NCBI GenBank assembly: GCA_964402835.1
Contig: CAYODZ010000228.1
Location: 1-57,516 of the forward strand
Origin: an uncultured Gammaproteobacteria bacterium
Lineage (GTDB): Bacteria > Pseudomonadota > Gammaproteobacteria > Natronospirales > JAIVGZ01
Direction of reading: 5' to 3'
Length of the DNA: 57,516 nucleotides
In this document: positions 24,046 to 57,398 of the stretch, piece by piece
How the letters are laid out: every line of letters starts with the position of its first letter
Position numbering within the stretch: the stretch's first letter is position 1
The notes under the pieces: generated by a model
The model's database searches: none
What the model was told of the DNA's origin: nothing
The model's input: the letters and a program-made list of their open reading frames with translations, nothing else
Translations under genes and position numbers: made by a program

Positions 24046-24440
24046 TCCGTTGAGAGGAACAGGTACCAAGTCACGCCGCCCAGAACGACGCCCGCAATGC
24101 CGCTCGTCAGCACTGCCCGCCGTCGCTGCTCCCGCAGTCTCGATGCGAACCCCTGCTGATACCCAGCGATGTACTCTCCGCTGCGGCTGCTCAGATTGAT
24201 GACGAGGCTGTCGGGCGGGGTCGCACCGATCGGTGCCGCAACGTATGTGACCAGCACACCCGGTATGCTGAAGGTGAATCCAGAAAGCAGCCCGAACGCA
24301 GCCCAACCATCGGCGCCCACGCTGTCTGCGGCCGCATACCCATGCTCCATTCCGGCAGCAACCGAATTGCCGGCCGTCTGTGAGGCCGCCGGCGCCGCAT
24401 TCGCGAGCACCAACGTTAGCAGAGTCATCAGTCGAGCCAT
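24042..24440 (-). CDS. Secreted/membrane protein (signal peptide plus two C-terminal hydrophobic segments)
   Basis: MARLMTLLTLVLANAAPAASQ signal. Hydrophobic GWAAFGLLSGFTFSIPGVLVTYVAAPIG and VLTSGIAGVVLGGVTWYLFL. Confidence 0.5.
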   Translation of the reverse strand: MARLMTLLTLVLANAAPAASQTAGNSVAAGMEHGYAAADSVGADGWAAFGLLSGFTFSIPGVLVTYVAAPIGATPPDSLVINLSSRSGEYIAGYQQGFASRLREQRRRAVLTSGIAGVVLGGVTWYLFLSTE

Positions 24441-24952
24441 TCGTCCACCAGCCTTCTCATTCGAATCGCGCGAGGCGCGAGTGCCGGTATCCGGTACTTC
24501 TGCCACGCGTAGTTGTCGAGCGGCACCGTGTCCCGGATCCGCTGCTCCACCCATGCAACATCCTGTTCGAGATCGATCTCGTCCATGATGCCGAGCAGCG
24601 CGAACGTGTCGCAGCTGTGCTCGAACTCCGGGTAGTCGCCTGTGAAGTGCATCACCGTGGGCTCGTCGACGTCGCCGCGGAGCACGTGCGCGGCCTCGTG
24701 CAAGATGATGAAGTTCTCGACCTCATGTGACAGATCGTCGCGCAGGCCCAGGTAGTACTTGCCGCCGATCGCAGACGACAACTGAGCGGGCGCCTGCATG
24801 CGCATCCGGAACACCTCGAGGTTGAACACCGCAGCGATGTTCTGCACGTCGCTCGAGGTCACCGGTCGACCGCGACCGTAGTCAGGGATGGCCAGCCGCG
24901 CGGCCTTGATAGTGGCCAGCAGTTCCCTTTCCTCAGCCGTCCTCCGCGTCAT
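24428..24952 (-). CDS. ImmA/IrrE-family zinc metallopeptidase (anti-repressor protease)
   Basis: HEXXH motif in ILHEAAHVLRGD. Directly downstream of, and overlapping, an XRE-type HTH gene. The ORF extends to 25072, but ATG 24952 gives the usual short overlap. Confidence 0.7.
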   Translation of the reverse strand: MTRRTAEERELLATIKAARLAIPDYGRGRPVTSSDVQNIAAVFNLEVFRMRMQAPAQLSSAIGGKYYLGLRDDLSHEVENFIILHEAAHVLRGDVDEPTVMHFTGDYPEFEHSCDTFALLGIMDEIDLEQDVAWVEQRIRDTVPLDNYAWQKYRIPALAPRAIRMRRLVDEWLD

Positions 24953-25445
24953 CTCCGCATAGCTCGTTACGCCAGGCGATGACCTTGGCCATCTCGTCCG
25001 GTTCGAGGTTCCGCCGTCGGGCGATCTGATATCCAAAGTCTCCTCGTTCACACGGCGTGAGCAGCCCGGCATGGCGCCGGATCCACTCTGGGTCGCCGAG
25101 CGCGTGGATAATCTCTGCGGCGTTACCGGACGCTTCGAACGATGGTCCGCGCTCTCGGAGAATGCCCGGGTTGGCCGGTGCAGGCCAAAAGCCGACCCCT
25201 GCTACCCTGCGCATCTCCACAAACGACTTGATTGCCCTTCGTTTCGCCTTGGTGATCCGAGTCCAATCTCCGCGGCGCCAGCGGGATACGTCGTTGTCGG
25301 TCACCCCCGGCACCATCTCTCGGATCTCCTGGCCGCTGTAGTCCGCCACGAATTCCAGGAATTCCCGAACTAAATCCTTGTCGTCCAGAGTCTTAGCCTC
25401 GGTCACGTACGGAGCTGGAACGAGAGCCTTGACGTCCCATTCCAT
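24933..25445 (-). CDS. XRE-family HTH protein, probable immunity repressor (ImmR/CI-like)
   Basis: HTH-like YSGQEIREMVPGVTDNDVSRWRRG. First gene of the minus-strand operon, divergent from the early + strand genes. Confidence 0.6.
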   Translation of the reverse strand: MEWDVKALVPAPYVTEAKTLDDKDLVREFLEFVADYSGQEIREMVPGVTDNDVSRWRRGDWTRITKAKRRAIKSFVEMRRVAGVGFWPAPANPGILRERGPSFEASGNAAEIIHALGDPEWIRRHAGLLTPCERGDFGYQIARRRNLEPDEMAKVIAWRNELCGDDAEDG

Positions 25446-28939: not shown

Positions 28940-29514
28940 TGAGTAGTTCTCTTTGCGAATGCGGATGCGGCGAGGAAGCGCCCTTGGCGCCGCGCAACAA
29001 GATTTCTCGGGGATGGATTAAAGGTCAGCCCGTGCGCTTCAAGGCCGGCCACAACCTCCGCATGCGAACTGGTGAGAATCACCCGTCGTGGAACGGAGGT
29101 AAGCGACGCAAGGCCGGTGGCCGTTATGTCGGCGTAAGGGCTCCGGATCACCCGCGTGCCGATCCGAGCGGATATGTCCTGGAGCATATCCTGGTAGCAG
29201 AACGCGCCCTCGGAAAGGCTCTTCCGGAAGCGTGTCAGGTGCACCATTTGAACGGTGATGGCACCCTGAACTCCGGCAGAAACCTGGTGATTTGCCAAGA
29301 CCAGGCCTACCACCATCTCCTGCACCGGCGGCAGCGTGCTCTAGATGCGTCCGGTCACGCTGACTGGATCCGCTGCAACATCTGCCGTGGATACGGACCC
29401 GCGGAAGACATGTACCTGCGCGACGGCGGCAAATGGGGAAGTCACCGAACCTGCCAGACCGAGAAGAATCGGCAGCGACCCTCCCGCGCCGGAGGTGCGA
29501 GATGCGCGGCGTAG
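28936..29514 (+). CDS. HNH endonuclease
   Basis: GYVLEHILVAERALGKALP...VHHLNGD...NL..C.D...HHLLH matches the HNH_3 pattern, with N- and C-terminal Cys clusters. Confidence 0.75.
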   Translation: MMSSSLCECGCGEEAPLAPRNKISRGWIKGQPVRFKAGHNLRMRTGENHPSWNGGKRRKAGGRYVGVRAPDHPRADPSGYVLEHILVAERALGKALPEACQVHHLNGDGTLNSGRNLVICQDQAYHHLLHRRQRALDASGHADWIRCNICRGYGPAEDMYLRDGGKWGSHRTCQTEKNRQRPSRAGGARCAA

Positions 29515-30626
29515 CGACATCCGATTTGCACCTCTCGTTCACGCGCCATCCGGCGGTGATCGCAGGCCGAAACGCTCGCGCAGTCGACGTCGAGCGGGCA
29601 TGGGACGCCGCGGTGCAGCACGCGGTCGATTATCAGCCCGACCTGTTCACGGTGGCCGGGGATTGCTTCGACCATCCGAGACCGTCGATGCACGCGCTGA
29701 AGGCATTCCAGCGCGGCATCATGACAGTGCTGCGCGAGACGGACGCTCACGTCGTCGTAATCGTCGGCAACCATGAAGGCAGTCGTACCGTTGAGGCGCT
29801 CTCTCCCGTCGTGGTGGTCGATGATCTGGACAAGCGCGTGCACGTCGTGCAGCAGCCGGAGCGTCTGGTCCTCCTGATTCATCGCACGGGGGAGCGCTGT
29901 GCGATCGACTGCTTCCCGTTCGGCGTTCTCGGCCAGGCGGGCGCGCACGAGTTGGCACCGGATCCGTCGGCGGACGTTTCGATGTTGCTCATCCATGCAG
30001 CGGTGCGGAGCAGCGCGTCGCCGGCGGCGGTGCCTTCCTTCTATGCCGGGCCGGACAAAGTGGATGTCGGTCCGTTCGCGGATCAGTACGACGTCATCGC
30101 CTGCGGCGACTTCCACGAGTTCCGTCGGCTGCACCCGAAGCGGCTGGCGTTTTACAGCGGCAGTGTGGAAAGGACGTCATCGAACATCTGGGATGAGCCC
30201 GCGCCGAAGGGCGTCGTGGCGTATGACACCGCCGATGGCTCGCTCGAACTGCTGAAGATCCCGACGCGGCCGATGCATGACATCGACTACCGCGGCACGC
30301 CGACGGCCGAAGGCGTGAACGAAGCGCTGGCGCTGCTCGTGGAGCGTGACTACGACGGCGTGATGGCTCGCCTCGTCGTCGAGGACTTCCCGCGCGAGGA
30401 GAGGGACGGACTGGATCAGAATCTCGTGCGCAACCTACGGAATCAGTGCCTGCACTTCGACCTGACGCTGCGCTATCGCGAGAGCCAGCGGCAGGAGGTG
30501 CAGGCCCGCCGCGAGAACATCGCTCGGAGCCTCGATGAGGAATGCGAAGCGTTCATGGCGGACGACCCGCAGGCCGTGCGCGAGACGGCGCTCGAGTTCA
30601 TGAGCGCAGCGGGAGGAACATCATGA
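29502..30626 (+). CDS. sbcD: SbcD/Mre11-family metallophosphoesterase nuclease
   Basis: Motifs SDLHL, AGDCFDH, IVGNHE, CGDFHE (calcineurin-like phosphoesterase motifs I-V). Upstream of an SbcC-like ATPase. Confidence 0.8.
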   Translation: MRGVATSDLHLSFTRHPAVIAGRNARAVDVERAWDAAVQHAVDYQPDLFTVAGDCFDHPRPSMHALKAFQRGIMTVLRETDAHVVVIVGNHEGSRTVEALSPVVVVDDLDKRVHVVQQPERLVLLIHRTGERCAIDCFPFGVLGQAGAHELAPDPSADVSMLLIHAAVRSSASPAAVPSFYAGPDKVDVGPFADQYDVIACGDFHEFRRLHPKRLAFYSGSVERTSSNIWDEPAPKGVVAYDTADGSLELLKIPTRPMHDIDYRGTPTAEGVNEALALLVERDYDGVMARLVVEDFPREERDGLDQNLVRNLRNQCLHFDLTLRYRESQRQEVQARRENIARSLDEECEAFMADDPQAVRETALEFMSAAGGTS

Positions 30627-30910
30627 ACGACAGCTCGTCGATCCCGTGGGAGTTGGCATACGCACTACGTGTGCTTCTCGATGAGGGCTTGGGCGAAAAC
30701 GTCTACCATGTTCGCGATGATGAGCTCAAGGGCTGGGAGGGTCCACGAGTCGTCGCTTACGGCAACGCCTGCACGGTGGCGGAGCAGTACGCGGTGCCGG
30801 CAGACGCAACGAGGACTCCGCCGACACCGGAGGAGCAGGAGATCGCAAAGCTGCAGGCTGAGAAAGAGGAGATCGACGCTCGCATCGCTCAGCTGCGAGG
30901 TGCGCCATGA
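30623..30910 (+). CDS. Hypothetical protein between sbcD and sbcC
   Basis: ATGA overlaps on both sides. 95 aa with a C-terminal coiled coil (EEQEIAKLQAEKEEIDARIAQL). Confidence 0.45.
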   Translation: MNDSSSIPWELAYALRVLLDEGLGENVYHVRDDELKGWEGPRVVAYGNACTVAEQYAVPADATRTPPTPEEQEIAKLQAEKEEIDARIAQLRGAP

Positions 30911-33381
30911 GACTGATCAGCATCCAACTGCGGGACTTCCGGGCGCATGAGGACACGCGAGTCGACTTCCCGGGGAGCGGCGTCATCTCGTTCACCGGAT
31001 CGAACGAGGCCGGCAAGTCCACGATCGCGGTCGAGGCGCTGCTCTTCGCGTTGTTCGGTGCACCGGCGATACGCGGCAAGCTGGACGGCGTGAAGTTCAA
31101 GGGCGCGCCCGCCAAGCGGCGGCCGGAAGTGGAGCTCGTGCTCGAGCTGGACGGCGAGCGGATCCGGATCGTGCGGACGGACAAGAACGCCAAGGTGTTC
31201 GCCGGCGAAGCCGACATTCCGGTTGCTGCCGGCACGTCTCCCTCGAACGGGTATCTGCGCCAGCGGCTCGGGCTGTCGCTCGAGGAATTCTCGGCAGCGT
31301 TCGTAGCGCAGCAGCGCGACCTGGCGCGTATCGCCGGCATGGGCCCGGTGGAGCGGCAGCAGTTCATCCGCGAAGTGATCGGAATATCGCGCATCGACCG
31401 TGCACTGAAGTCACTCCGTCGCCGGAAGAACGAGCTCGCGAGCGAGCGCGAAGGACTCGCCGTCGGCCTCGGTGAGCGGAGCCCACTGCTCGAGGAGCGG
31501 GACTCCGCGGCCGCGGCGGTTGCATCTGCCAGCGACGCCTGCCACACGGCCTCGGTCGCCATCGGCGCCGCGACCGCTGAGGCTTGGCAGGCGAGCGAGG
31601 CGCTGGCCACGTCGACCGCGCGGAAGGACGCGCACGATGCGGCGGCACGACGTCTCGACACGGCGCAGGCTGATTGCCGGAGCGCGCGCATCGAGATCGA
31701 CCGGCTGAACGTCGAGCTGACGGACGCGCACGCGGCGCGTGCTGCGCTGGCGGCCGAGCAGGTCGAGCTGCAGAAGATCCCGGGGCTCCGCACGGAGCGC
31801 GACCGGCTTCTGGCCGCGAAGGCGGCCGCATCGGAGCGCACGACGCTCGAGCATTCCGCGCAGATGGCGCAGCACGATGTGCAGCAGTACGGCGACTACG
31901 TGAAGGACTGCGATCGCGTGATCGCGGAGTACGACCAGCAGGTGTTCGCCGCATTCAAGGAGGAATACCGGGCTGCCCAGGAGCGGTTTAGTCGCATGAT
32001 CGCGGATCGTACGCGCCAGCACGCTGAGCTCAACGCCGCGGCGGACGCGGCCAGCAAGCGCGAAGAGAAGATCGCGCAGCAGATCCGGACGCTCTACGCG
32101 CACGGCGCCGACGGTCAGTGCCCGCTGTGCCTGGGTGACCTGACTGACCGGTTCGAGACCGTCATCGAAACGCTGGGCGATGAGGCCAACCTGCTCTGCA
32201 GTGAGGCCACGGATCTCCGCGATAGCGCGGCCGCGCTCGCCGACCCGTCCGATGACGAGCTCGCGCTCGACGCGGAACTCGAAGACCTGAAGCAGAAGGG
32301 CGAGCGGTACCGGCAGGCGGAGAAGGATTGCACGGCGGCCAAGGAGCAGAAGCCGTCATGGGCGCGTCAGCTCCAGATCGCGAAGAGCCGGGTCGCGGAG
32401 TGCGCCGCGAAGCTGACTGCGCTGCCGAATGCCGTCTACATCCCGGAGGCGCTCGTCCAGGTGAACGATGAGATCACGCGCCTCGAGGCGATCGACCGCG
32501 GTCTCGCAGACGTCCGCGGCCGCGCGTCCCGTATCGATCTGCTGCTGGAGCAGCGGTCGGCCGCTGAGCAGCGCGCCACGGACGCCGAAGCGCACGTGAA
32601 GCAGGCAGAGGAGGCGATCGCTGCTGCCGAGTTCGATCTCCAGCACCACACGGTGGTGACGGCGGCCGCGAAGGTCACGGAGCAGGCGCTGGCGGCGGCG
32701 CGGCAGGAGGAAGCGCGCGCGACGGAGCAGCTGCGCGGGGCCGAGGCGGCGCTCAGGAAGGCGGAGCAGGCACTCGCGGCCTATGACACGCGCGCGGGCC
32801 AACTCGACGCCCTGACGCAGACCGTCCAGGTGCACGAGGCAGCAGCCGAGCGGCTGGATGCGTTCCGCGTCGCGGCCGCGGCGACACTCCGCCCGGAGAT
32901 GGAGGAGTACATGTCCGGGTTCATCTCGGTCCTGACCGACGGCCGTCATGAGAGCGTGACGATCGGCGACGACTTCTCGGTGATCTGCCAGGAGTCCGGC
33001 GTCGACATGGAGGTGATCAGCGGCGGGGCGGAGGATGTGGTCGCGCTCGCACAGCGCGTGGCGCTCTCTCAGATGATCGCAGAGCGGAGAGGCCGGCCGC
33101 TGTCGCTGCTCGTGCTCGATGAGCCGTTCGGCGCACTCGACGCAGAGCGTCGGCCGGCGGTGCTCGATTTCCTGCGGCGGCTCTCGGCGACGTTCAGTCA
33201 GGTCGTCGTGATCAGCCACGTCGACGAGTCCAAGTACGCAGCCGATCACGTGATCCAGGTGGAGCACGATGCGGCGAGAGGCTGCTCGCGCGTGCTGATG
33301 CCCGACATCGCCGGCGAAAGTCGGCAGGAGTCGGCGATCAGCGGCGAACGCCGGCAGAGTCCGGCGGGAGCGGCAGCATGA
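30907..33381 (+). CDS. sbcC: SbcC/Rad50-family SMC-like ATPase
   Basis: Walker A GSNEAGKST, long coiled coils, zinc hook CPLC (DGQCPLCLG), signature/Walker B GGAEDVVAL...LLVLDEPFGALD. Confidence 0.85.
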   Translation: MRLISIQLRDFRAHEDTRVDFPGSGVISFTGSNEAGKSTIAVEALLFALFGAPAIRGKLDGVKFKGAPAKRRPEVELVLELDGERIRIVRTDKNAKVFAGEADIPVAAGTSPSNGYLRQRLGLSLEEFSAAFVAQQRDLARIAGMGPVERQQFIREVIGISRIDRALKSLRRRKNELASEREGLAVGLGERSPLLEERDSAAAAVASASDACHTASVAIGAATAEAWQASEALATSTARKDAHDAAARRLDTAQADCRSARIEIDRLNVELTDAHAARAALAAEQVELQKIPGLRTERDRLLAAKAAASERTTLEHSAQMAQHDVQQYGDYVKDCDRVIAEYDQQVFAAFKEEYRAAQERFSRMIADRTRQHAELNAAADAASKREEKIAQQIRTLYAHGADGQCPLCLGDLTDRFETVIETLGDEANLLCSEATDLRDSAAALADPSDDELALDAELEDLKQKGERYRQAEKDCTAAKEQKPSWARQLQIAKSRVAECAAKLTALPNAVYIPEALVQVNDEITRLEAIDRGLADVRGRASRIDLLLEQRSAAEQRATDAEAHVKQAEEAIAAAEFDLQHHTVVTAAAKVTEQALAAARQEEARATEQLRGAEAALRKAEQALAAYDTRAGQLDALTQTVQVHEAAAERLDAFRVAAAATLRPEMEEYMSGFISVLTDGRHESVTIGDDFSVICQESGVDMEVISGGAEDVVALAQRVALSQMIAERRGRPLSLLVLDEPFGALDAERRPAVLDFLRRLSATFSQVVVISHVDESKYAADHVIQVEHDAARGCSRVLMPDIAGESRQESAISGERRQSPAGAAA

Positions 33382-34770: not shown

Positions 34771-34994
34771 GCCAGCCGCAGCCGTCTCTGTTCATCGACC
34801 CGGGCGAACGTCGTGAGCGCATCGTCGTCGAGCTGCTGCGCAGATTCCCGGCGTACGGAGAGGGCACACCGGAGAATCATCGGAACGCGACGTCGGTGAC
34901 GCTGGCAAAGCAGCCGCCAACGTTCGCGTTCGGCGTGCCGGTGAGGGCGGTCGTCGATGCGGTGCTCGACCTGGCCGAGGAGGCCGATCGGTGA
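34767..34994 (+). CDS. Hypothetical protein
   Basis: ATGA overlap. 75 aa. Confidence 0.35.
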   Translation: MSQPQPSLFIDPGERRERIVVELLRRFPAYGEGTPENHRNATSVTLAKQPPTFAFGVPVRAVVDAVLDLAEEADR

Positions 34995-35974
34995 GCAAGA
35001 TCGAATGGACGCAGCAGACCTGGAATCCGATCGCAGGGTGCAGCCCGGTATCGGAGGGCTGCAGAAACTGCTACGCGGCCCGCGAGGCCATCCGGCTGCA
35101 GGAGAATCCGACTGTCCAGATCCGCGCCAAGTACGAAGGCACCGCCGTCATGCGTGGTGCTGATGCGCACCGACGCGCGGTATTCACGGGACGCGTAAAT
35201 CTCGCGCCGCAGCTGCTGGGGCTCCCGCTCCGATGGAAGCGCCCGCGCCGCGTGTTCGTGAACAGCATGAGCGACCTGTTTCATGAGAAGGTACCGATCA
35301 CGTTCATCGCGCACGTGTTCGCCGTGATGGCCGCGACGCCGCGTCATACGTACCAGGTCCTCACGAAGCGGCCGGAGTGGATGGCGACGCTTCTGAATGA
35401 CGAGTATTTCTGGCAGCAGGTCCACGGCTTCGGCATGGAGCAGTGGTGGGACGTCGACGCACTGGCGACCATCGGCGAGATCGGTCCGCTGCACCCGCTC
35501 GTGAACGTGTGGCTCGGCACATCCGTCGAGGACCAGGCAGCCGCGGATGAGCGGATCCCGCACTTGCTGCGCACGACGGCGGCCGTGCGATTCCTGAGCT
35601 GCGAGCCGTTGATCGGGCCGGTGGACCTGACGGGGTTCTTTCTCATTCCCGTCGCCGATCGTGGGTCATTCGATTCACCGATCGACTGGGTGATCGCCGG
35701 CGGCGAAAGCGGGCCCGGCGCGCGTCCGTGTGACATCGATTGGCTCTACACGATACGGGACGCGTGCAGGGACTTTCAGGTGCCACTATTCGTGAAGCAG
35801 CTCGGCGCGCAGCCGATCGCGGCCGATCTCACGCACACGCGGAGCGGATATGCGCTCCTGCCGGACAGCAGTGGCTATGCCCTGATGATGCGCAGTCCGA
35901 AGGGTGGCGATCCGTCTGAGTGGCCGGAGACGCTGCGGATTCGGGAGTACCCGAACATTACGGCGGGGGTGTGA
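34991..35974 (+). CDS. Phage Gp37/Gp68-family protein (DUF5131, three-Cys motif)
   Basis: N-terminus KIEWTQQTWNPIAGCSPVSEGCRNCYA is the hallmark of this family. GTGA overlap. Confidence 0.75.
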   Translation: MSKIEWTQQTWNPIAGCSPVSEGCRNCYAAREAIRLQENPTVQIRAKYEGTAVMRGADAHRRAVFTGRVNLAPQLLGLPLRWKRPRRVFVNSMSDLFHEKVPITFIAHVFAVMAATPRHTYQVLTKRPEWMATLLNDEYFWQQVHGFGMEQWWDVDALATIGEIGPLHPLVNVWLGTSVEDQAAADERIPHLLRTTAAVRFLSCEPLIGPVDLTGFFLIPVADRGSFDSPIDWVIAGGESGPGARPCDIDWLYTIRDACRDFQVPLFVKQLGAQPIAADLTHTRSGYALLPDSSGYALMMRSPKGGDPSEWPETLRIREYPNITAGV

Positions 35975-36498: not shown

Positions 36499-38217
36499 AT
36501 GAGCCACACCGGCATCGCGCTGGGCTATACCCGCGTGAGCACAGAACGACAGGCGGACGAGGGTCGCACCTCGCTGTCCGACCAGCAGGCCGCGATCGAG
36601 GCGAAGGCCGCCGCGCTCGGCACGACCGTTACGCTATGGTTCCGTGACGAGGGAGCGAGCGGGGCGACGGCTGCCGGTCGTCCGGCGTTCAGTGCGCTCA
36701 TTGAGTATTGCGAGTCGAATCCGCAGCCGCGGCGCGCGCCCGGCGACGTGCTCGTGATGACGTTCTCCCGGTTCGGCCGCTTCGACAATCCGGAGGAGGC
36801 GCCGTACTGGCGGCACCGCCTGCTCCTGGCCGGCTGGGTCGTACGCTTCGCGGAGGGGGATGTCGAGGGCGATGTCGCGCCCATCATGCGCGCCGTCGGC
36901 GACGTGGAAGCCTCGACGTACCGCAGGAACCTGCGCGCGAACACGCGGCGGGGGATGAAGGGCGCCGCGTCGCAAGGATACTGGACCAGGGAGGCTCCGT
37001 TCGGGTTTCGGCGCATGGTGGTGCTCCCGCCGGAGTCTGCGCGCGTGCTGGAGGTTGGACAGTTGAAGGCGCCGAACGAGAAGGTAAAGCTCGTGCCCCA
37101 CACCGTGGAGGCGAAGATCGTCGCGTGGGCGTATCGCGCGTATGCCGAGCGCGAACACACCGCGTGCTCGCTCGCGCGCGAGCTCAAGACCATCGTGCCG
37201 TCGAAGCCGTGGGGGCCGCAGCTGCTACTGGCATTGCTCCGAAACCCCGCGTACTGCGGCGACGTACTCGGCGGTCGTCGACGCGGCGAGAGTGACACCG
37301 CGCACATTCGGGCGGTCCCGGAGCTCTACGGGATGAGGAACGCGCACGAGCCGATTGTTTCACGCGAGCTCTGGGAAGCGGCGCAACACCGCATGAGTGA
37401 GAACCGGAAGATCGGTCGCGGCGTTGCGTCCACGTACCTGCTGTCCGGCCTCCTGCATTGCCCGTACTGCACGGGGCACTACGTCGGCGGCGGCGGCGGC
37501 CGGAAGTTCCACAGCAAGACCCGGCGCGAGCGGCGGCGCTTCTATCGTGACGCCGGCGGGATGGATGGCATATGCCCTGGCCGCATCGGCACCGTCATGC
37601 GCTACATCATCGAGGATGCGGTGATCGCGACGATGACGAAGACGATCCGCTCACGCGCAGTGCGCGGCCGCGTCGAGCAGCACATAGAACGCGCGCTGTC
37701 GGGGTCTCCCGACGCAGGCGAGAGCGAGGCGACACTGCGCAGGACGCGATCGCGCCTCGATGAGCGGCGCGATCGCCTGATTGCACTCATGCTGAACGGC
37801 ACCGTGACGCAGGCGGAGGGTGCGGGCCAGATGGAGCAGCTCCGCACGAGCATCGCGGACACCGAGCGGCGCATCGAGTCGCTCCGGTTCGTCGCGCGTC
37901 GACGCGTACCGCGCGCGGAAGAGCGCGACCGGCTCGTGCAGATGGTGATGGACTTCCCTGCGCTCGCCCAGCGGCTGAAGGGCCCGGCGCTCCGCGCGCT
38001 GCTCGAGCGGTGGCTCGCGGCCGCAACGTTCGACAAGGTGACCCGCGAACTGGAGCTCCACATTCGACCCGTGCCCTCGCTCGCCTTTCAGCCTGCAACC
38101 CGGGCGGGGCGAGATGATCCGCCGCAAGGTCCCCGCCCGCTAATCCGCCGGGTCAATCTCATCCAGCCTGGCTACTCGCCGTGGGCCCAGCTCGAGGCCA
38201 TGGAGCGCGGCGCATGA
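36499..38217 (+). CDS. int: Large serine recombinase (integrase)
   Basis: N-terminal resolvase catalytic motif GYTRVSTERQ, recombinase domain, zinc-ribbon CPYCTGHY, C-terminal coiled coil. 572 aa. Confidence 0.85.
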   Translation: MSHTGIALGYTRVSTERQADEGRTSLSDQQAAIEAKAAALGTTVTLWFRDEGASGATAAGRPAFSALIEYCESNPQPRRAPGDVLVMTFSRFGRFDNPEEAPYWRHRLLLAGWVVRFAEGDVEGDVAPIMRAVGDVEASTYRRNLRANTRRGMKGAASQGYWTREAPFGFRRMVVLPPESARVLEVGQLKAPNEKVKLVPHTVEAKIVAWAYRAYAEREHTACSLARELKTIVPSKPWGPQLLLALLRNPAYCGDVLGGRRRGESDTAHIRAVPELYGMRNAHEPIVSRELWEAAQHRMSENRKIGRGVASTYLLSGLLHCPYCTGHYVGGGGGRKFHSKTRRERRRFYRDAGGMDGICPGRIGTVMRYIIEDAVIATMTKTIRSRAVRGRVEQHIERALSGSPDAGESEATLRRTRSRLDERRDRLIALMLNGTVTQAEGAGQMEQLRTSIADTERRIESLRFVARRRVPRAEERDRLVQMVMDFPALAQRLKGPALRALLERWLAAATFDKVTRELELHIRPVPSLAFQPATRAGRDDPPQGPRPLIRRVNLIQPGYSPWAQLEAMERGA

Positions 38218-39001: not shown

Positions 39002-39228
39002 AGATCCGCATCGCCACCGCTCGCCGTGCATGGGAGTGCCGCACGATGAACTGGCATCCGGAAATCGGCACCGTTAACGGACCGCGCCGCGTGCTCGACG
39101 GCGGCGATGTGCCCGCTGATCACACGCATCAGATCGCGCCGGGCTCCCGCTTCGTCCAGTTCCAGATGTACGGTGAGACGCAGCGCATGTGCGAAGCCTG
39201 CGCGCGCGCGGCGGGAGTACTGCAATGA
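38998..39228 (+). CDS. Hypothetical protein
   Basis: ATGA overlaps. 76 aa with C..C at the C-terminus. Confidence 0.4.
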   Translation: MKIRIATARRAWECRTMNWHPEIGTVNGPRRVLDGGDVPADHTHQIAPGSRFVQFQMYGETQRMCEACARAAGVLQ

Positions 39229-39656
39229 CGCACGTCATCCACCGCTCCAGCAGCGTCGAGTGGTCGACGCCGCGCCGGCTCTTCAACGAACTCGATCGCG
39301 AGTTCGGGTTCACGCTGGACGTGTGTGCCACGCCCGCCAATGCGACGTGCGATCGCTTCTTTACTGCGGAGCAAGACGGTCTGCTTCAGGAGTGGGACGG
39401 CGTGTGTTGGATGAACCCTCCGTACGGAAAGACTCTCGGCACCTGGATCGCGAAAGCGTACGAGGCAGCGCGCGCCGGCGCGACGGTCGTGTGCCTGGTG
39501 CCGGCGCGGACGGACACCAGCTGGTGGCACGATCTCGTGATGGGCAAAGCTGAGGTCCGCTTCCTCCGCGGGCGTATTCGGTTCGGTGATTCGAAGGGAC
39601 CCCGCGCGCCGTTCCCGTCCGTGGTGCTGATCTATCGGCCGCAGGTGCCGGGATGA
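39225..39656 (+). CDS. Phage-type DNA N6-adenine methyltransferase (Dam-like, PF05869-type)
   Basis: EWSTPRRLFNELDREFGFTLDVCA...F.....DGL...W.G..WMNPPYG matches the phage Dam family including the NPPY catalytic motif. Confidence 0.75.
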   Translation: MTHVIHRSSSVEWSTPRRLFNELDREFGFTLDVCATPANATCDRFFTAEQDGLLQEWDGVCWMNPPYGKTLGTWIAKAYEAARAGATVVCLVPARTDTSWWHDLVMGKAEVRFLRGRIRFGDSKGPRAPFPSVVLIYRPQVPG

Positions 39657-50997: not shown

Positions 50998-52686
50998 ATG
51001 GGCACCTTCGCGAGCGCAGTCGTGCGCATGCTGAAGCCGCTGGTGAACGAGGGCGCGCTGCTACCGTACGCCGGCGACTGGATGCCGCCCGAGCATCTCG
51101 ACCGGCTGCGTCAGTATGAGATCTTTCGCGCGCTGCACGAGAACCGGATCGGCGGACTGCTGAAGGACAAGGAGGCCGCGAAGAAGATCCGCGGCTACGG
51201 CGATTACTCCCTGGTCGTGGAGACCAGCCGTGACGCCGTGCTCGGCGATCGCATCGAGATCGAGGTGCCCGGATCCAGTGACGAAGGCAACGCCGGTGCG
51301 GTTGCGCGGAAGACGCTGCTCGACGAGTGGGCACGGCGGCAGCGGTGGGCCAGCAAGATGTATCGCTGTGAGACGGACGCGGCCGCGGTGGGCGACTGCG
51401 TGTACGAGCTCCGGCCGAACGGCTCCCGGCTGCTGCTCCGTGCGCACGACCCCGAATCGTTCTTCCCGGTCTGGGAAAATGCCGAGGGCGACTTCGACGA
51501 GGCGTATCTCGCGTGGGAAGAGAGGAACACCGGGCAGTATCTGCCCTCGCCGCCGGCAAACATGGCGGACCTGCACAACCGCGATGGCCAGGTTGTGCTT
51601 TATCGTCGGCACTACGAGATGCTGAGCGTCCAGGAGGCGCGCGATCGCGGCGTCACGACCGTTGGGGCCCGGACGCGCACGGAGATCTGCATCGTCACGT
51701 CCGGCTGGTTCCGCATCGAGAACCGGAGCGGCGAGAAGCCGGTGGGTTTCGAACGGCTCGAGCGGCTCGGCTTCGAGCTCACCGAGGATGGGGATCCGAT
51801 CGACAGCCTGGACACCGGCTTCGATACGCCGCCCCTGTTTTACATCCCGAACCGGGAGGCCACAGGCCAGCCGTGGGGACTGCCGGAGGGCGACGTCGTG
51901 CTGCAGACGCTGCTCGACGCGGCGCAGGACCAGTCGGACCTGAAGGAGAACACGTACGCCAATGCGTTCCCCGTCATGTACGACGAGAATCCGCCCGTCG
52001 GCGCCGTGCCGCGGCCGGGTCAGCAGCAGGGGCACGCGGCGACGAGATCGCAGGAGAAATACAAGCCGGGCATGATCTACAACGGCCGGAAACTCGGCGT
52101 CGTCGACATGTCGCACGGCAACGAGTTGCTGATGAAGCACGAGGAATGGCTGATCGCGAAGGCGCTCTCCAACTCGCGCACGACGCTGATCGCCGCCGGC
52201 AAGCTCGAGGGTGGGGAGATTCCGTCCGGAATAGCGCTCATGATCGCGCTGCTGCCGCTGTTCGCGAAGACACTGCCGAAGCGTCAGACGCGGAAGGACA
52301 AGCTCGGCATGATGCTGAAGCATGTGCTCCGCTGGCATCGCGATTTCGGCAAGGCGGGGGACTTCTTCGGCTCGGCCGAGGACGCAGCGAACGCGACCGC
52401 CACGTGGCCGGAGGGGATCTGGAGCTCCGAGGAGGCGTATCCATCGTTCGGCAGCATCATCCCGATCGATAAGAAGCAGGTCAGCGAGATCGTCGCCTCA
52501 CTGATCACTGCGGGGGCGATCAGCGATGAGACCGCGGTCACCATGCTGCTGGTTGCAGGGTTCCCGATCGATGACGCCACGAAGGAGGTCGAGCGGCTGA
52601 AGGAAGCCCGAGCGCTGCCACCCGGAGCGCCAGGCAGCGGGTTCGGCAACGAGGGCGTGCCGATACCGGGGATCGGTGAGGTGTGA
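50998..52686 (+). CDS. Portal protein
   Basis: 562 aa immediately after terL. Size and position fit a portal, with general portal-like composition. Confidence 0.75.
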   Translation: MGTFASAVVRMLKPLVNEGALLPYAGDWMPPEHLDRLRQYEIFRALHENRIGGLLKDKEAAKKIRGYGDYSLVVETSRDAVLGDRIEIEVPGSSDEGNAGAVARKTLLDEWARRQRWASKMYRCETDAAAVGDCVYELRPNGSRLLLRAHDPESFFPVWENAEGDFDEAYLAWEERNTGQYLPSPPANMADLHNRDGQVVLYRRHYEMLSVQEARDRGVTTVGARTRTEICIVTSGWFRIENRSGEKPVGFERLERLGFELTEDGDPIDSLDTGFDTPPLFYIPNREATGQPWGLPEGDVVLQTLLDAAQDQSDLKENTYANAFPVMYDENPPVGAVPRPGQQQGHAATRSQEKYKPGMIYNGRKLGVVDMSHGNELLMKHEEWLIAKALSNSRTTLIAAGKLEGGEIPSGIALMIALLPLFAKTLPKRQTRKDKLGMMLKHVLRWHRDFGKAGDFFGSAEDAANATATWPEGIWSSEEAYPSFGSIIPIDKKQVSEIVASLITAGAISDETAVTMLLVAGFPIDDATKEVERLKEARALPPGAPGSGFGNEGVPIPGIGEV

Positions 52687-52689
52687 TTG

Positions 52690-52872
52690 ATGGCGCTCGA
52701 GCACGAGACGGATAACGAGCACTGCTGGTGTCAGCCTGAAGTGCTCCAGGTCTGCCCGGAATGCGACGAGGATCATATTCCGACGCCGGGCTGCTGGCGC
52801 TGCGGCGGTCGCGGCCTGGTGCCCGAGTACGACGAGACGCAGTGCAGCGTCATCGTGCACCGTGACACATAG
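52690..52872 (+). CDS. Zinc-ribbon protein (60 aa)
   Basis: CWC..-CPEC-..CWRCGG cysteine pairs. Starts 3 nt after the portal stop. Confidence 0.4.
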   Translation: MALEHETDNEHCWCQPEVLQVCPECDEDHIPTPGCWRCGGRGLVPEYDETQCSVIVHRDT

Positions 52873-53146
52873 ACTCCACGGCCGCCGCGAGCCGTATACT
52901 GCGGTCGGCGTGCGCCGGATCCCCTGCTTCCGCTGCGGCGCGCGGGCGGGATTCCAGTGGAATGTCTGCGCCGACGGATTGTATCACCCGCTCTGCGCAC
53001 GCTGCGACATCGAGCTGAACGCGCTGGTCCTGCACTGGATGCTGCATCCGGACGCGCAGGGACTCACCGAACGGTACGCGGAGTCGAAGGGATACCAGAT
53101 CGTCGGATACCGGCCGTGGCGTGGCCAGCGTATCGATCTCACATGA
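52862..53146 (+). CDS. Zinc-finger protein (94 aa)
   Basis: GTG start overlapping upstream by 11 nt. CFRC...C....C.RC pattern. Confidence 0.4.
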   Translation: MTHRLHGRREPYTAVGVRRIPCFRCGARAGFQWNVCADGLYHPLCARCDIELNALVLHWMLHPDAQGLTERYAESKGYQIVGYRPWRGQRIDLT

Positions 53147-53607
53147 AGCTTACCCTGTCGGTCAACGCTCACGAGCAGCTCCGCCAGATCTGCACACTGC
53201 ACCGCGGCCTCGAGGTCGGCGGGCTCCTGGTCGGCACCCGCGACAGCGATCGCGCATTCGTCTGGGAAATCATCGGCCCGGGCCCGGGCGCGGTTTTGCA
53301 CGCGCGGACCCTGGTGCTCGACACGAGTTTCATGGTGGGAGTACTCGTCGGTGTTGCTGCGGCCGGCACCGTAGAAGTGCTCGGACGCTGGCATAAGCAT
53401 ATTGCGCCGGACCTCCGGGCCAGCCATGATGATCGGCGTGGCGCCGATGCATTCCGCATGCTCACTCGAGTCGACGAATCGTTCGAGCTGATCATCGGCA
53501 CCGACCGTGATTTCCCGATCGGTTTCGGCGCATATCTGTGCACGTCCGAGGGCCTATGCCGGATTCCAATGTCGTCACCGAACTTGCTGCCGGCGGTGCC
53601 CAGGTAG
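53143..53607 (+). CDS. JAB/MPN+ (JAMM) metalloprotease-domain protein
   Basis: Glu in LEVGGLLVG plus a complete H-x-H-x7-S-x2-D motif (WHKHIAPDLRASHDD). ATGA overlap with the upstream gene. Confidence 0.65.
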   Translation: MKLTLSVNAHEQLRQICTLHRGLEVGGLLVGTRDSDRAFVWEIIGPGPGAVLHARTLVLDTSFMVGVLVGVAAAGTVEVLGRWHKHIAPDLRASHDDRRGADAFRMLTRVDESFELIIGTDRDFPIGFGAYLCTSEGLCRIPMSSPNLLPAVPR

Positions 53608-53768
53608 GCATATATCGTTGGTATTGCGGCGGCCAGGACGAAATCGCGGGATACCCTGTAGTTCGAGTCACCGGGTCTGGCGCGTGCGATGAGGCGATCA
53701 TTCTGTGTTCCGAGTGCAGGCGCCTTGCGCCGTTTCAGAACGGGTGCCGCTACGTGATCGACGAGTGA
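53556..53768 (+). CDS. Small Cys-containing protein (70 aa)
   Basis: WYCGG...C....LCSEC. Overlaps the JAB 3' end by 52 nt, so the start is uncertain. Confidence 0.35.
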   Translation: MPDSNVVTELAAGGAQVGIYRWYCGGQDEIAGYPVVRVTGSGACDEAIILCSECRRLAPFQNGCRYVIDE

Positions 53769-54016
53769 CGCACACTCAACCGCCTAACAACTGGCGACAG
53801 CGTATCCGTCGAGGACTTCCCTTCCCCCCAGGTCGCGACGGCGAAGAGTTCGACGTGCTGATCACGCGCGACCACCGGGTGTATCACCTGAACACGACTA
53901 CCGCCGACGTCTTCGTTCAGAATGGTCAGCGCTGGGACGCTCCACCGTGGTGGGAGCTGCCGGACATGGTGAAGAAGGCGGTTTCGGGCCTGCTCCAGCA
54001 ACGGCACGATCATTGA
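53765..54016 (+). CDS. Hypothetical 83-aa protein
   Basis: GTGA overlap. Trp-rich C-terminal part (QRWDAPPWWELPDMV). Confidence 0.35.
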   Translation: MTHTQPPNNWRQRIRRGLPFPPGRDGEEFDVLITRDHRVYHLNTTTADVFVQNGQRWDAPPWWELPDMVKKAVSGLLQQRHDH

Positions 54017-54083: not shown

Positions 54084-54097
54084 GGTCCCACGAGGCC
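54084..54097 (+). promoter_or_regulatory. Conserved late-block motif, copy C (GGTCCCACGAGGCC)
   Basis: 13/14 identical to copies A and B. Its last four bases form the start of the terminator stem at 54094. Confidence 0.45.
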
Positions 54098-54136
54098 GGC
54101 GATCCGAGAAATCGGATGCGCCGGCCTTTGTCGTTT
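54094..54136 (+). terminator. Rho-independent terminator (GGCCGGCGATCCGA-gaaa-TCGGATgCGCCGGCC + TTTGTCGTTT)
   Basis: 14-bp stem with one bulged G and a 4-nt loop, followed by a T-rich tract. 78 nt after the last gene of the JAB cassette. Confidence 0.6.
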
Positions 54137-54204
54137 CGCCCCGCCGAGCGTATCGGCGTTTGATCCGTCTCGCGACGTAAAACCGGAAAACCTGAGGAGC
54201 AACG

Positions 54205-54870
54205 ATGTACACCGTTGGAAAGCCGAGCATGAAGCTGCTGCGCCTCGCGGCGCGATTCGCACAGCCGGAGGGTGATCCGCCGGCGCCGAAGGATCCGCCG
54301 GTAGACCCTGCGCCCAAGGATCCGCCACCGGATCCGAAGGACAAGAAGACGGCGGCTCCGCCGGTTGATGACAGGAAGGCGGTTCCGTTCGCGCGGTTCA
54401 GCGAAGTCAGCCAGAAGAGGCGAACGGCAGAGCGATCGCTCGCAACGGTAACCGCCGAGCGGGACACTCTGAAGACGCAGCTCGACCAGGCTCAGTCGGG
54501 TGATCAGGCAACGGCGCTGAAGGCAGCGCAGGAGCAGGTCACCGAGCTGAACAAGTCGATCCAGAAGATCGATGACGAGTTCGAGGACATGCTCGAGGTG
54601 GCGCTCGCGGACGTGGAGGAGGACGACGCGAAGATGATTCGTGAGATCCCCGGCGGCGCGCGTGCACAGTTCGCCTGGTTCAACAAGCACCGAGCTCGAC
54701 TGGCTGGCGGTGAGAAGGCTCCGACGGACGAGAAGAAGAAGGGCGGAGTGAAGTCGCCCACGAACGAAAAGAAGCCGGGCGGCGGTGAGAACACCGGACC
54801 GTCCAGCGCAGCGAAGTCATACGTCGATCAGTCGAAGCCGAAGGAGAAGGGCTTCGCTGGTCTCGCCTGA
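54205..54870 (+). CDS. Scaffolding protein (candidate)
   Basis: GAGGAG RBS 5 nt upstream. Pro/Asp/Lys-rich N-terminus, central coiled coil (TLKTQLDQAQ...VTELNKSIQKIDDEFEDML), basic C-terminus. Upstream of decoration and capsid genes. Confidence 0.55.
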   Translation: MYTVGKPSMKLLRLAARFAQPEGDPPAPKDPPVDPAPKDPPPDPKDKKTAAPPVDDRKAVPFARFSEVSQKRRTAERSLATVTAERDTLKTQLDQAQSGDQATALKAAQEQVTELNKSIQKIDDEFEDMLEVALADVEEDDAKMIREIPGGARAQFAWFNKHRARLAGGEKAPTDEKKKGGVKSPTNEKKPGGGENTGPSSAAKSYVDQSKPKEKGFAGLA

Positions 54871-54898: not shown

Positions 54899-55264
54899 AT
54901 GGATCTCAATCTGAAGACCACGACGGTCGGGGCGAACCCGGTCTGGCTGGATACCACGGAGGGGCTGCGCTTCCTCGTGGACGGCGTGACGCTGGACTCG
55001 GCAGCGATCGCCGCAGATGGCAACGGCGACAAGATCGTCGCGAGCGGTACGCCGATCGAGAAGAGCGGTGCGAAGTGGGTACCGTCATTCGCCGCGCTCG
55101 GTGTGCCGACAGCGATTCTCTGGCAGACGCTGAATGCGAAGGACGGCGACGTCCACGGCGACGCCCTCGACCATGGCCGTGTCAAGACTGCGGCCCTGCC
55201 GGTCACCGTTCACGCCGACTCGCAGGCGAGCCTGCAGTCCGTCGGCATCACCTTCAGGAGCTGA
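54899..55264 (+). CDS. Head decoration protein (gpD-like, candidate)
   Basis: 121 aa, GAGGAGG RBS, immediately before an E-type major capsid gene as in lambda D-E. Confidence 0.5.
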   Translation: MDLNLKTTTVGANPVWLDTTEGLRFLVDGVTLDSAAIAADGNGDKIVASGTPIEKSGAKWVPSFAALGVPTAILWQTLNAKDGDVHGDALDHGRVKTAALPVTVHADSQASLQSVGITFRS

Positions 55265-55271
55265 GCGAGCC

Positions 55272-56537
55272 ATGATGAACACATCATATCGTCTCGTGGC
55301 CGCGCTCCTCACTGTGATCGCGGTCCTCTGTGCCGGTGCGACGTTCCTCGCCCCACCGGATCTCGCCCAGGGTGCCGGCATCCTCGCGATGTCGATGCCA
55401 TTCCTCTTCACCTCTCCCGTCGACGAGATGCGTGCGCACCTGGCGGCAACGTTCGCCGATCCGGGATCGGATCTGCTCGCGGAAATCGACGGCCTGTCGC
55501 CGGAAGACATTCAGTACGTCGTCGACAACATGAACCCCTTCGAACGGCTCTCGCCGGGTGGCTTGCTGGGTGACCAGCTTTTCCCGGAGCGCCTCACGGA
55601 GGAGCTCACATTCGCGTACCTGAAGGGTGCCGGCGGTGGAGCGGTCATGGCGCACGTGACTGGCCACAACTCCGAGGCGCCGCTCGTCGGCCGGAAGGGC
55701 ATCGAGACGGTGCGCGGTCAGATTCCCGCGATCAAGCAGAAGCGCTATCAGGATGCGCTGACGCTGATCCGGCTGCAGAGCGCGGACGCATTGATGCGGA
55801 GTGCCGCAGTGCGCGAGATCTTCGATGACGTGACGAACGCGCGGCTTGGCATTGCCGCACGCGTCGAGAAGCTGCGCATGGATGCACTCTCTGCTGGTGT
55901 CGTGTCGGGCCTGACGGAGGAAGGGCTCGTGTACAGCGTCGACTACGGCGTGCCGGCCGGTCACAAGGAGACGCTCGCGGGCGCCGACCTGTGGACGGAT
56001 CCGGCGTCGAAGCCGCTCGCAGACCTCGAGGCGTGGCAGAACACGATGGTGGCTGATACCGGCCAACCCATGGCGAATGCGGTCACGAGCACGGCGGTGA
56101 TCAACGCATTCCGCAGCCATGAGTCGGTCAGGGAGGCGATCTGGGGCGTGAACAAGGCTCGCCGCGTAACGGCCGCGGAGGCGGACGAGTTCCTGCGCCA
56201 GCAGAACCTGCCGACATTCGTCCCATACGACCTGATGGTCGCACAGGAAGCCGTCGACGGCACGCGCACCGGTGTCCGTCTCTGGCCGAATAACCGCCTC
56301 ACCCTGATTCCGGCGCTCGCCGGTGCAGGCGTCGGCCGCACGCACCGCGCGCCGACGGCGGAGGAGGCTGTGCGGTCGATCGCGGAGGGCACGATCGTGA
56401 TCGATGGCTTCCGGATCGCGATCCACGTGTACGTGAGCACCAACGATCCGAAGGGCGTGGTGACGCTCGGCGTCGCATCCACGTTCCCGAGCTTCGAGCG
56501 CGCGGATCACGTCTTCCAGGCAGTAGTCCTGGCGTAA
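55272..56537 (+). CDS. Major capsid protein (lambda gpE-like family) with unusual hydrophobic N-terminal extension
   Basis: Size, position and blocks such as LFPERLTEELTFAYLKG...HNSEAPL resemble Phage_cap_E. Alternative start at ATG 55389. Confidence 0.7.
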   Translation: MMNTSYRLVAALLTVIAVLCAGATFLAPPDLAQGAGILAMSMPFLFTSPVDEMRAHLAATFADPGSDLLAEIDGLSPEDIQYVVDNMNPFERLSPGGLLGDQLFPERLTEELTFAYLKGAGGGAVMAHVTGHNSEAPLVGRKGIETVRGQIPAIKQKRYQDALTLIRLQSADALMRSAAVREIFDDVTNARLGIAARVEKLRMDALSAGVVSGLTEEGLVYSVDYGVPAGHKETLAGADLWTDPASKPLADLEAWQNTMVADTGQPMANAVTSTAVINAFRSHESVREAIWGVNKARRVTAAEADEFLRQQNLPTFVPYDLMVAQEAVDGTRTGVRLWPNNRLTLIPALAGAGVGRTHRAPTAEEAVRSIAEGTIVIDGFRIAIHVYVSTNDPKGVVTLGVASTFPSFERADHVFQAVVLA

Positions 56538-57020: not shown

Positions 57021-57398
57021 ATGGACGCGAAGATCACACTCTCGAGACCGACATCGGTGGACGACCTCCGCGCCGCGTATCCGCGCGCGTTGCTGGCGTC
57101 CGAGGATGACGAGCTCGAGCTGTGGCTGGACATCGCGGAACATGCGCTGCGTTCGCACTTCCACGTAACTGAGCTCTCCTCGGACATCGATGATGCATTG
57201 GGCCGCGCGATCATCGCGGCGTGGCCATCTCTCCAGCAGCAGGTGCGTCAGATCGCCCAGGAGTCGGCATCGCCCGACGGCCACTCCGTCAGCTACGCTC
57301 GAGGTGAGGAATCCTTCAACTTCCCGCCCTTCCTGAGCGTCATGCTCGGCGCGTACGGTCCGGGCGATGCGCCGACCACCACGGAGCTGGTGCGCTGA
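57021..57398 (+). CDS. Head-tail connector protein (gp6-like, candidate)
   Basis: N-terminal ..SVDDLRAAYPRALLASEDDELELWLDIAEHALRSHF.. resembles Phage_connect_1-type proteins. Confidence 0.5.
   Translation: MDAKITLSRPTSVDDLRAAYPRALLASEDDELELWLDIAEHALRSHFHVTELSSDIDDALGRAIIAAWPSLQQQVRQIAQESASPDGHSVSYARGEESFNFPPFLSVMLGAYGPGDAPTTTELVR

Follow-up and report, generated by a model that had tools for sequence, protein, structure and literature searches.

Which role a stand-alone peptidase of the JAB/MPN+ (JAMM) superfamily plays in a phage head module is the question raised by contig CAYODZ010000228.1, whose entire 57,516 nt were analyzed and are called the window here. The window has 65% GC and the gene order of a temperate siphophage, nearly complete and wrapping around. 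Between the stop codon of the portal gene (52686) and the start of the scaffold gene (54205) lie five open reading frames (ORFs) on the same strand, designated o1 to o5, the third of which encodes the JAB protein. An initial annotation had described five short overlapping ORFs here and had regarded them as one cassette. The first part of this description agrees with the coordinates, with the stop/start overlaps (ATGA at o2/o3, GTGA at o4/o5) and with the codon-position GC content, which fits coding for all five ORFs (0.66-0.82 at third positions, GC3, and 0.44-0.51 at second positions, GC2) and is weakest for o4 and o5. The cassette as a unit was not borne out, as a survey of related head modules finds only o3 and o5 to be co-conserved.

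The o3 gene (53143-53607, plus strand) encodes a stand-alone JAB/MPN+ JAMM protein of 154 aa and is a conserved core gene of these modules. The complete JAMM site already noticed in this central ORF consists of E24, within GLEVGGLLVG, and H84-K-H86-x7-S94-x2-D97. All five residues (E24, H84, H86, S94 and D97) are invariant in an alignment of 20 members, whose identity to the window protein is 28-57%. An AlphaFold2 model obtained from this 20-sequence alignment has a mean predicted local distance difference test (pLDDT) score of 95.2; the folded domain ends at about residue 141 and is followed by a variable C-terminal tail. Foldseek assigns the model to the MPN fold. The top match is a ubiquitin-bound Rpn11 homolog from Caldiarchaeum (6fno/6fnn, probability 1.00, template modeling (TM) score 0.78-0.81), and further matches include DSY2949, Rpn11, Cap3 (TM 0.72), BRCC36, Pyrococcus JAMM1 and the Bil deubiquitinase (DUB) 8tyx. 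There are 229 PDB matches at E <= 1e-3, and among the 50 listed all are MPN-domain proteins or complexes holding them.

Sequence profiles place o3 close to the JABs of defense systems. The match to Pfam Prok-JAB (E = 7e-5, 23.1 bits) is just below the gathering cut-off of 25 bits, and the PADLOC model PDLC00895, a JAB of the cyclic oligonucleotide-based antiphage signaling system (CBASS), matches 20/20 members nearly full-length (best 8e-16, o3 1.3e-9). In NCBIfam, the '6A-MBL cap2_3' model matches the o3 family with E = 1.6e-7 and 30 bits (cut-off 320), and the Cap3 model (CDNTaseCGASCap3) with E = 0.011 and 16 bits against an equivalog cut-off of 200. The best PDB sequence match of o3 is Cap3 (9ild), and its catalytic motif aligns with the HTH motif of Cap3. 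Judged from sequence and model, o3 belongs to the JAMM superfamily as a Cap3-like protein with an intact catalytic site, and, because its NCBIfam scores are far below the equivalog cut-offs, we do not consider it a Cap3 ortholog. A HMMER search of 1.84 billion representative proteins returned about 20 full-length relatives of o3 together with several hundred generic JABs; pattern scans of GTDB genomes and JGI metagenome contigs detected no JAB relatives. A minus-strand ORF at 52984-53427, preferred by crude gene calling, was rejected since the plus-strand JAB has homologs, a profile match and a confident fold.

Loci of relatives (numbered L001 onward) were gathered in two ways, via the JAB and separately via the portal alone (5 of 12 modules). 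The JAB hidden Markov model (HMM) is positive in 12/12 head modules (window, L001, L003, L005, L007, L008, L009, L010, L012, L014, L016, L019 and L020; portal identity 52-75%), each time between portal and scaffold. The portal itself is 51-75% identical to 22 database relatives and is encoded immediately 5' of the JAB block at all related loci. Mean pairwise identity across loci is lowest for the JAB (42%), followed by o5 (44%), the scaffold (47%), the decoration and capsid proteins (57%), and the portal and TerL (64%). The divergence of the JAB correlates with that of the portal (r = 0.58) and of o5 (r = 0.50). Because its divergence tracks both of these genes and its rate is close to that of the scaffold, the JAB appears to be a vertically inherited, fast-evolving member of the module, a pattern unlike that of a frequently exchanged accessory gene. 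We also sought an outgroup that combines this portal with a canonical protease in the slot. The two portal relatives at the greatest distance, L018 and L021, are without JAB, o5 and the entire scaffold-decoration-capsid block and carry an HExxH protein instead; with that module missing, they are unsuitable for the comparison. Among 50,697 phage records, neither the head region (megablast) nor the o3 JAB (tblastn) had a match, and the sole match of the portal (tblastn) was Streptomyces phage ZL12, which at 25% identity is too distant to inform the slot.

As only the JAB and o5 recur across related modules, these two genes, rather than all five, constitute the conserved core. The o5 gene (53765-54016, plus strand; longest ORF from 53705) encodes an orphan protein of about 83 aa. 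An o5 HMM detects a homolog downstream of the JAB in 10/10 relatives with enough sequence (E 1e-25 to 1e-41), and o5 precedes the scaffold gene in every case. The protein family is characterized by an N-terminal W-x-QR-[IV]-RRGLPFPPG, three predicted strands, an invariant P-x-W-x-x-LP and a C-terminal helix (alignment A6). It has no Cys motif, and its C-terminus is variable, without a conserved Gly. No match to o5 was found in Pfam, PHROG, NCBIfam or PDB sequences, and its best PDB profile match, a galectin-like motif at E = 0.63, was treated as chance. An index of 5.8 billion proteins contained nothing beyond the truncated gene call of o5 itself; its relatives are missing from the index because the gene is mostly uncalled in them.

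The block had been said to end at a strong intrinsic terminator, and RNA folding agrees. An intrinsic-terminator-like hairpin with a U-rich tail is located at 54092..54138 (plus strand). The hairpin itself (54092-54127) has 16 bp and one bulge, is followed by UUUGUCGUUUC, begins 75 nt past o5, and has a folding energy (dG) of -30.8 kcal/mol with z = -4.7; a simple terminator scan missed it because the stem is bulged. A hairpin with a TTTTGTCGTTTC-like U-rich tail is present in 8/8 relatives examined, in which the structure is conserved while the stem sequences differ. The hairpin is thus predicted to close a TerL-portal-JAB-o5 transcription unit, with the genes of the abundant shell proteins lying beyond it, and since this conserved terminator follows o5, the JAB and o5 would be the last genes of the terminase-portal unit. 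Placement of the JAB before the terminator fits a low-copy factor, either catalytic or portal-stoichiometric.

Pfam searches of the ~70 predicted ORFs of the window identified no S78, S49/ClpP, S77 or Mu-type prohead protease, in keeping with the earlier statement that no canonical prohead protease is recognizable, and a PHROG search of the five slot ORFs identified no known prohead protease family. The same Pfam searches of all predicted window ORFs found no ThiF/E1, E2, ubiquitin-like (Ubl), CD-NTase or CBASS effector family. The sole other peptidase family in the window is an ImmA/IrrE-like M78 peptidase in the lysogeny region. An HExxH/PhageMetallopep protein as the 'real' protease was rejected for the window, which has no homolog of these proteins and in which the ImmA-like gene product is the only HExxH protein.

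A JAB in the portal-capsid slot is not in itself new. The initial annotation knew of no stand-alone phage JAB described at this locus; in fact, such proteins are annotated in ~98 actinophage genomes, and Patience gp19 was listed in 2014. A Foldseek comparison with viral models led to small proteins labeled 'metalloprotease' or 'protease' in Gordonia and Mycobacterium phages. One of these phages, Patience, encodes gp19 (146 aa), which has a full JAMM motif (Prok-JAB E = 6.8e-10), lies between the portal and capsid genes directly 5' of a MuF-like gene, and is the only annotated protease in this phage. Pope et al. (2014) named gp19 a 'protease' within the terminase-portal-protease-capsid synteny of Patience, the capsid protein of which is cleaved at Q82/I83 (PMC4324244). 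A tblastn search with gp19 found homologs in 98 genomes, of which 51 belong to Mycobacterium, 46 to Gordonia and 1 to Nocardia phages; the labels in use are metal protease/tail assembly, metalloprotease, peptidase, head maturation protease and capsid maturation protease. Delton gp11 ('capsid maturation protease') and Yikes gp12 ('metalloprotease', Gordonia) share the slot arrangement, and the cluster H phages Konstantine and Predator carry the label 'metal protease'. We found no paper in the literature joining JAMM enzymes with a prohead protease.

The actinophage proteins resemble o3 in being stand-alone JABs of ~150 aa with a complete JAMM motif, in occupying the slot from portal to scaffold/capsid with small variable ORFs around them, and in that no further protease is annotated in the stretches displayed. 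The homology between the two groups is nevertheless of superfamily level only (hhalign probability 82%, E 1e-5, 91 columns around the motif). The actinophage JABs have no o5-like partner, and their matches to Cap3-type models are confined to ~50 residues surrounding the motif, whereas the o3 family is much closer to the Cap3 type. The MuF-like gene follows the actinophage JAB directly or one small ORF on, whereas in the o3 clade it comes after the connector genes (44-871 in the window, 13409-14461 in L001). Given that non-orthologous stand-alone JABs are already annotated in this slot in ~98 actinophage genomes, the window represents a second, Cap3-like lineage of head-module JABs, with a partner protein.

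The two roles suggested in the initial annotation, head-maturation protease and counter-defense deconjugase, are both compatible with the data. The interpretation we prefer, with less than even confidence and hence tentatively, is that the JAB processes a protein during head assembly and has o5 as its partner. The o3 product would be an active zinc peptidase made late from a transcription unit shared with the terminase and the portal, and would act jointly with the co-inherited o5 as the head is assembled. Its cut would fall within an exposed, extended tail or linker of a phage head protein, candidates being the disordered N-terminal linker of the scaffold and the C-terminal tail of the portal, and it would take over the job of the prohead protease of other phages. 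We infer that the substrate would be a phage head protein and that o5 may be an adaptor or regulator. This interpretation draws on the invariance of the motif across 20 homologs and on a confident model with a JAMM peptidase fold; on the presence of the JAB in 12/12 and of o5 in 10/10 modules and their vertical inheritance with the module; on the predicted co-transcription of the JAB with the portal before a conserved terminator; on a genome in which Pfam shows neither a canonical prohead protease nor conjugation machinery; and on the independent JAB lineage of actinophages that occupies the same slot, in which the Patience capsid is cleaved and gp19 is the only annotated protease. Canonical prohead proteases (HK97 gp4/S78, lambda gpC/S49-ClpP, T4 gp21/S77) share the slot and the late co-expression of o3 but belong to the serine class, whereas o3 would be a zinc JAMM enzyme of unrelated fold and has no recognizable encapsidation signal. 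The portal-capsid slot is reportedly known for non-orthologous displacement of proteases, a point credited to Liu and Mushegian in 2004.

Several considerations weigh against a processing protease. To our knowledge, no characterized JAMM peptidase is a general endoprotease. Heads of the SPP1, P22 and T7 types, which use a free scaffold, assemble without a protease, and because the module in the window resembles that of SPP1 in its free scaffold and MuF-like protein and is hence of a protease-independent design, the missing protease proves little. The capsid protein has no long propeptide, its N-terminal region being conserved as part of the fold, and there is no sign here of any head protein being processed. 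The JAB itself is minimal (a folded domain of ~141 aa and a variable tail), without a recognizable capsid-targeting extension, and its sequence is nearer to the Cap3-type JABs of defense systems than to the actinophage head JABs. The cleavage site of the Patience capsid (Q/I) is unlike the Gly-Gly-type site of JAMM enzymes, and cleavage by the known JAMM enzymes always follows the tail of a Ubl or a CD-NTase (PMC3482391, PMC1779556). The minimal JAMM enzymes among the best structural matches (the Caldiarchaeum Rpn11 homolog, Pyrococcus JAMM1 and DSY2949; TM 0.71-0.81) are single-domain proteins like o3, to which they are 17-21% identical, and the characterized ones act on the ubiquitin or SAMP of their own organism; in contrast to those organisms, the window phage has no detectable Ubl.

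The sequence affinity to defense-system JABs invites a different explanation, in which a Cap3-like isopeptidase captured from a host E1/E2/JAB defense operon strips host conjugates. We regard such a counter-defense role, the main alternative, as doubtful, if worth serious attention. The JAB would be made late, or packaged beside the portal and ejected, and would act on the CD-NTase-target conjugates of type II CBASS or on Bil-type Ubl marks on virion proteins, with o5 as a specificity factor or second inhibitor. The best matches outside the o3 family itself are indeed defense-system JABs (the PADLOC model in 20/20 members, and the NCBIfam cap2_3 and Cap3 models), and the generic JABs in the wider HMMER list include ThiF(E1)-JAB fusions. 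Cap3 9ild is the best PDB sequence match, and Cap3 and the Bil DUB 8tyx are among the structural matches. Like o3, the Cap3/cap2_3 isopeptidases are minimal JABs of ~155 aa with an xWHxH motif, and they account for its best profile matches, with a TM score of 0.72 (9ild). Hör et al. speculate on DUB domains in phage structural proteins, and CBASS is reported to be triggered at the head-maturation stage (PMC12991175).

Unlike Cap3, however, o3 is phage-encoded in a head module, in a genome with no CD-NTase, Cap2 (E1/E2) or effector, and it scores only 16 bits against the Cap3 equivalog cut-off of 200. Anti-defense genes are usually patchy and early-expressed, whereas this JAB is universal, syntenic and vertically inherited within its clade. 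Neither Cap3 nor Bil systems have a counterpart of o5, which is strictly co-conserved here, and the non-orthologous JABs of actinophages sit exactly in the protease slot and not elsewhere in the late operon. A more specific version, which we consider unlikely, is that a Cap3-type isopeptidase has been domesticated in the head module and removes, together with o5, host Ubl/CD-NTase conjugates at capsid assembly or after ejection.

The constancy of o5 could also mean that the JAB and o5 form a self-contained morphogenetic pair like gpK and gpI of lambda, which we find distinctly unlikely. A small assembly factor, either o5 or another protein, would then be processed or transiently bound by the JAB, would chaperone portal or scaffold nucleation and would stay out of the virion. 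Lambda gpK (TAPK) and gpI (TAPI) offer a precedent, as a phage JAB beside a small partner in a cluster of virion morphogenesis genes (PMC1779556). The strict co-occurrence of the JAB and o5, their tight or overlapping junctions in L003, L010 and L014, and the correlation of their divergences (r = 0.5) are consistent with a pair of this kind. The lambda genes are, however, part of the tail module, and gpK is fused to NlpC/P60, whereas o3 is a single domain in the head module. In addition, gpI combines a beta-grasp fold with a conserved C-terminal Gly, two features not seen in o5: its C-terminus varies and has no conserved Gly, the strand-strand-strand-helix order predicted for it by eye from alignment A6 differs from that of a beta-grasp, and it has no detectable similarity to TAPI or any Ubl.

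That the JAB is a dispensable passenger (moron) with no part in assembly or counter-defense, retained only through close kinship of the sampled phages, or even a RadC-like nucleic-acid enzyme, is improbable. In favor of a passenger, the slot is a hot-spot in which the small genes vary and encode Zn ribbons, HExxH proteins or unrelated products of 95-196 aa, the sampling is phylogenetically narrow (all relatives having at least 51% portal identity) and one family member, L004, lies outside a recognizable head module, yet the catalytic residues are invariant though identity to the window protein drops to 28%, the JAB and o5 persist while flanking ORFs turn over, fold and sequence are those of Ubl-tail peptidases and not of RadC, and JABs were independently recruited to the same slot in actinophages.

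Stand-alone JABs are thus present in the head module of at least two unrelated phage lineages, one comprising ~98 actinophage genomes and the other at least 12 metagenomic phages. Should these JABs be maturation proteases, the zinc JAMM class would join the serine-protease families of capsid maturation, and JAMM enzymes would be able to act outside Ubl systems. If they are deconjugases, they would represent a viral answer to the recently found bacterial ubiquitin-like defenses, Bil and type II CBASS, and a domesticated Cap3 acting in counter-defense would be the first dedicated viral 'deubiquitinase' counter-defense in bacteria. The clade described here offers a Cap3-like enzyme lineage and a strictly co-inherited o5 that hints at the working partners of the enzyme, and the role of a head-module JAB can be addressed in phages of Mycobacterium smegmatis such as Patience and Delton.

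The other three ORFs of the slot behave differently from o3 and o5. The o1 gene (52690-52872, plus strand; 60 aa) encodes a Cys-rich protein with CWC, CPEC and CWRCGGRG, the DnaJ-type CxxCxGxG (GC3 0.82, GC2 0.44), and has a single homolog, in L005 (5774-5986), which is 49% identical and keeps the Cys residues. The o2 gene (52862-53146, plus strand; 94 aa) encodes a Cys-pair protein of the pattern CxxC...C...CxxC, likewise with a single homolog, in L016 (2230-2457), at 53% identity. Neither o1 nor o2 matches a Pfam, PHROG or NCBIfam family. The Cys-rich o4 (53556-53768, plus strand; 70 aa, or 76 aa if translation starts at GTG 53538) overlaps the 3' end of the JAB gene and is the least certain gene, with a weak coding signal (GC3 0.66). 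It has no homolog at any related locus, and its position is taken in relatives by unrelated ORFs of 98-196 aa or by nothing. The Cys-rich nature of these neighbors, which the initial annotation had noticed, is evident, but a partnership with the JAB is not supported, as they are patchy or without homologs. Since o1 recurs only in L005, o2 only in L016 and o4 nowhere, the Zn-ribbon ORFs are best read as accessory insertions in a variable hot-spot and not as parts of the machine. In relatives, the same two insertion points are either empty or taken by unrelated ORFs of 95-196 aa or by small HExxH proteins, of which there are two kinds.

The ATG of o4 (53556) falls within the conserved JAB codons Cys-Arg-Ile (..A TGC CGG AT.). 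The equivalent ATG in L001 (9598) begins an unrelated ORF of 98 aa, and both products start with MPD. This ATG looks like a fixed translational re-start point feeding whichever gene is inserted after the JAB. In the wider list of JAB matches, the 257-aa protein P0041 has a Phage_zn_bind_8 domain (PF24623) fused to a Prok-JAB domain and might thus be a Rosetta-stone protein that connects Zn fingers with phage JABs; however, neither o1 nor o2 matches the PF24623 Zn-finger family.

Small HExxH proteins, resembling zinc metallopeptidases, are encoded directly after the portal in L012 (1819-2289), L018 (8776-9267), L021 (6139-6603) and L010 (1296-1745). Those of L012, L018 and L021 are homologous (26-28% identity of the L012 protein to the others, E 1e-14 to 1e-16), and in L012 the HExxH protein and the JAB coexist. 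A PhageMetallopep gene (PF18894) is located just 5' of the small terminase gene in L001 (4559-5167), L005 (1154-1783) and L019 (610-1263), and the window has none. On the 3.4-kb Logan contig L004, an o3-family member with 42% identity is preceded by ORFs of 120 and 76 aa and lies near a divergent gene with a faint Peptidase_C39_2 match; this contig is too short to be called phage or cellular. L016 (JAHWJV010000465.1) is a 3.2-kb contig with the portal, the o2 homolog and the JAB, binned in a Gemmatimonadetes (Gemmatimonadota) metagenome-assembled genome. This bin is the only host clue for the clade, and a weak one, as binning of short contigs is.

A conserved block precedes the scaffold gene at 54139..54204 (plus strand; GCCCCGCCGAGCG.ATCGGCG ... 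CGACGTAAAACCG / CCGTCTCGCGACGTAAAACCG, recognized by eye), immediately past the terminator and ahead of the ribosome-binding site of the scaffold gene. It is also present in L001 (10255-10326), L003 (3245-3314), L009 and L014, and partly in L010, L019 and L020, and it holds a small conserved hairpin. The block is possibly a late promoter or a regulatory element of a 5' untranslated region; an Rfam search of the intergenic region between terminator and scaffold gene gave no match.

The right end of the window contains the genes for TerL, the portal, the scaffold, a gpD-like decoration protein and a gpE-type capsid protein, the left end those for the MuF-like minor head protein, the tail and lysis, and the middle those for a serine integrase and the ImmA-like protease. 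The portal gene (50998..52686, plus strand; 562 aa), the upstream anchor of the JAB slot, has a weak SPP1_portal match in Pfam. The scaffold gene (54205..54870, plus strand; 221 aa), with only coiled-coil-type matches in Pfam, encodes a conserved N-terminal peptide, a Pro/Lys/Asp-rich linker, a coiled coil and a conserved C-terminal GFAGLA, and the protein is 40-64% identical among relatives. The lambda gpD-like head decoration protein (54899..55264, plus strand) has a weak HDPD match, and HDPD is also recorded for its homologs in L010 and L011; in L014 the decoration protein (9801-10382) has an insertion of ~70 aa and is 193 aa long, against 121 aa. The major capsid protein (55389..56537, plus strand) is of the lambda gpE type (Phage_cap_E, E = 3e-36).

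The start of the capsid gene is uncertain (ATG 55272, 55389 or 55395, from a comparison of N-termini with L001). The ORF is open for 85 codons 5' of the likely start (55389/55395), from 55134, and overlaps the end of the decoration gene. A start at 55272 would add a hydrophobic leader of 39 aa; the gene has been called long in L009 and short in L001 and L010. The extension, from 55134 or 55272, was rejected as a cleaved propeptide because it overlaps the decoration gene or consists of a hydrophobic stretch absent from L001 and L010, and it is probably untranslated.

A homolog of the gene at 57021-57398 directly precedes the MuF-like gene in L001 and L010, and the MuF-like gene of the window is located at 44-871. 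Because these two genes join across the ends of the window as they do in L001 and L010, the window is probably a complete genome, circularly permuted or arbitrarily opened. The ImmA/IrrE-like M78 peptidase of the lysogeny switch (24431-25072, minus strand; Pfam) has no bearing on the JAB finding, and neither have the further Pfam-named genes given below. In L020, the large terminase (4748-6997; 749 aa) has a weak, intein-like Hint_2 match. Other genes of the window named by Pfam, all on the plus strand, encode a large serine recombinase (36499-38217), an SbcCD-like nuclease pair (29433-33381), a DUF5131 protein (34991-35974) and a Dam methyltransferase (39189-39656).

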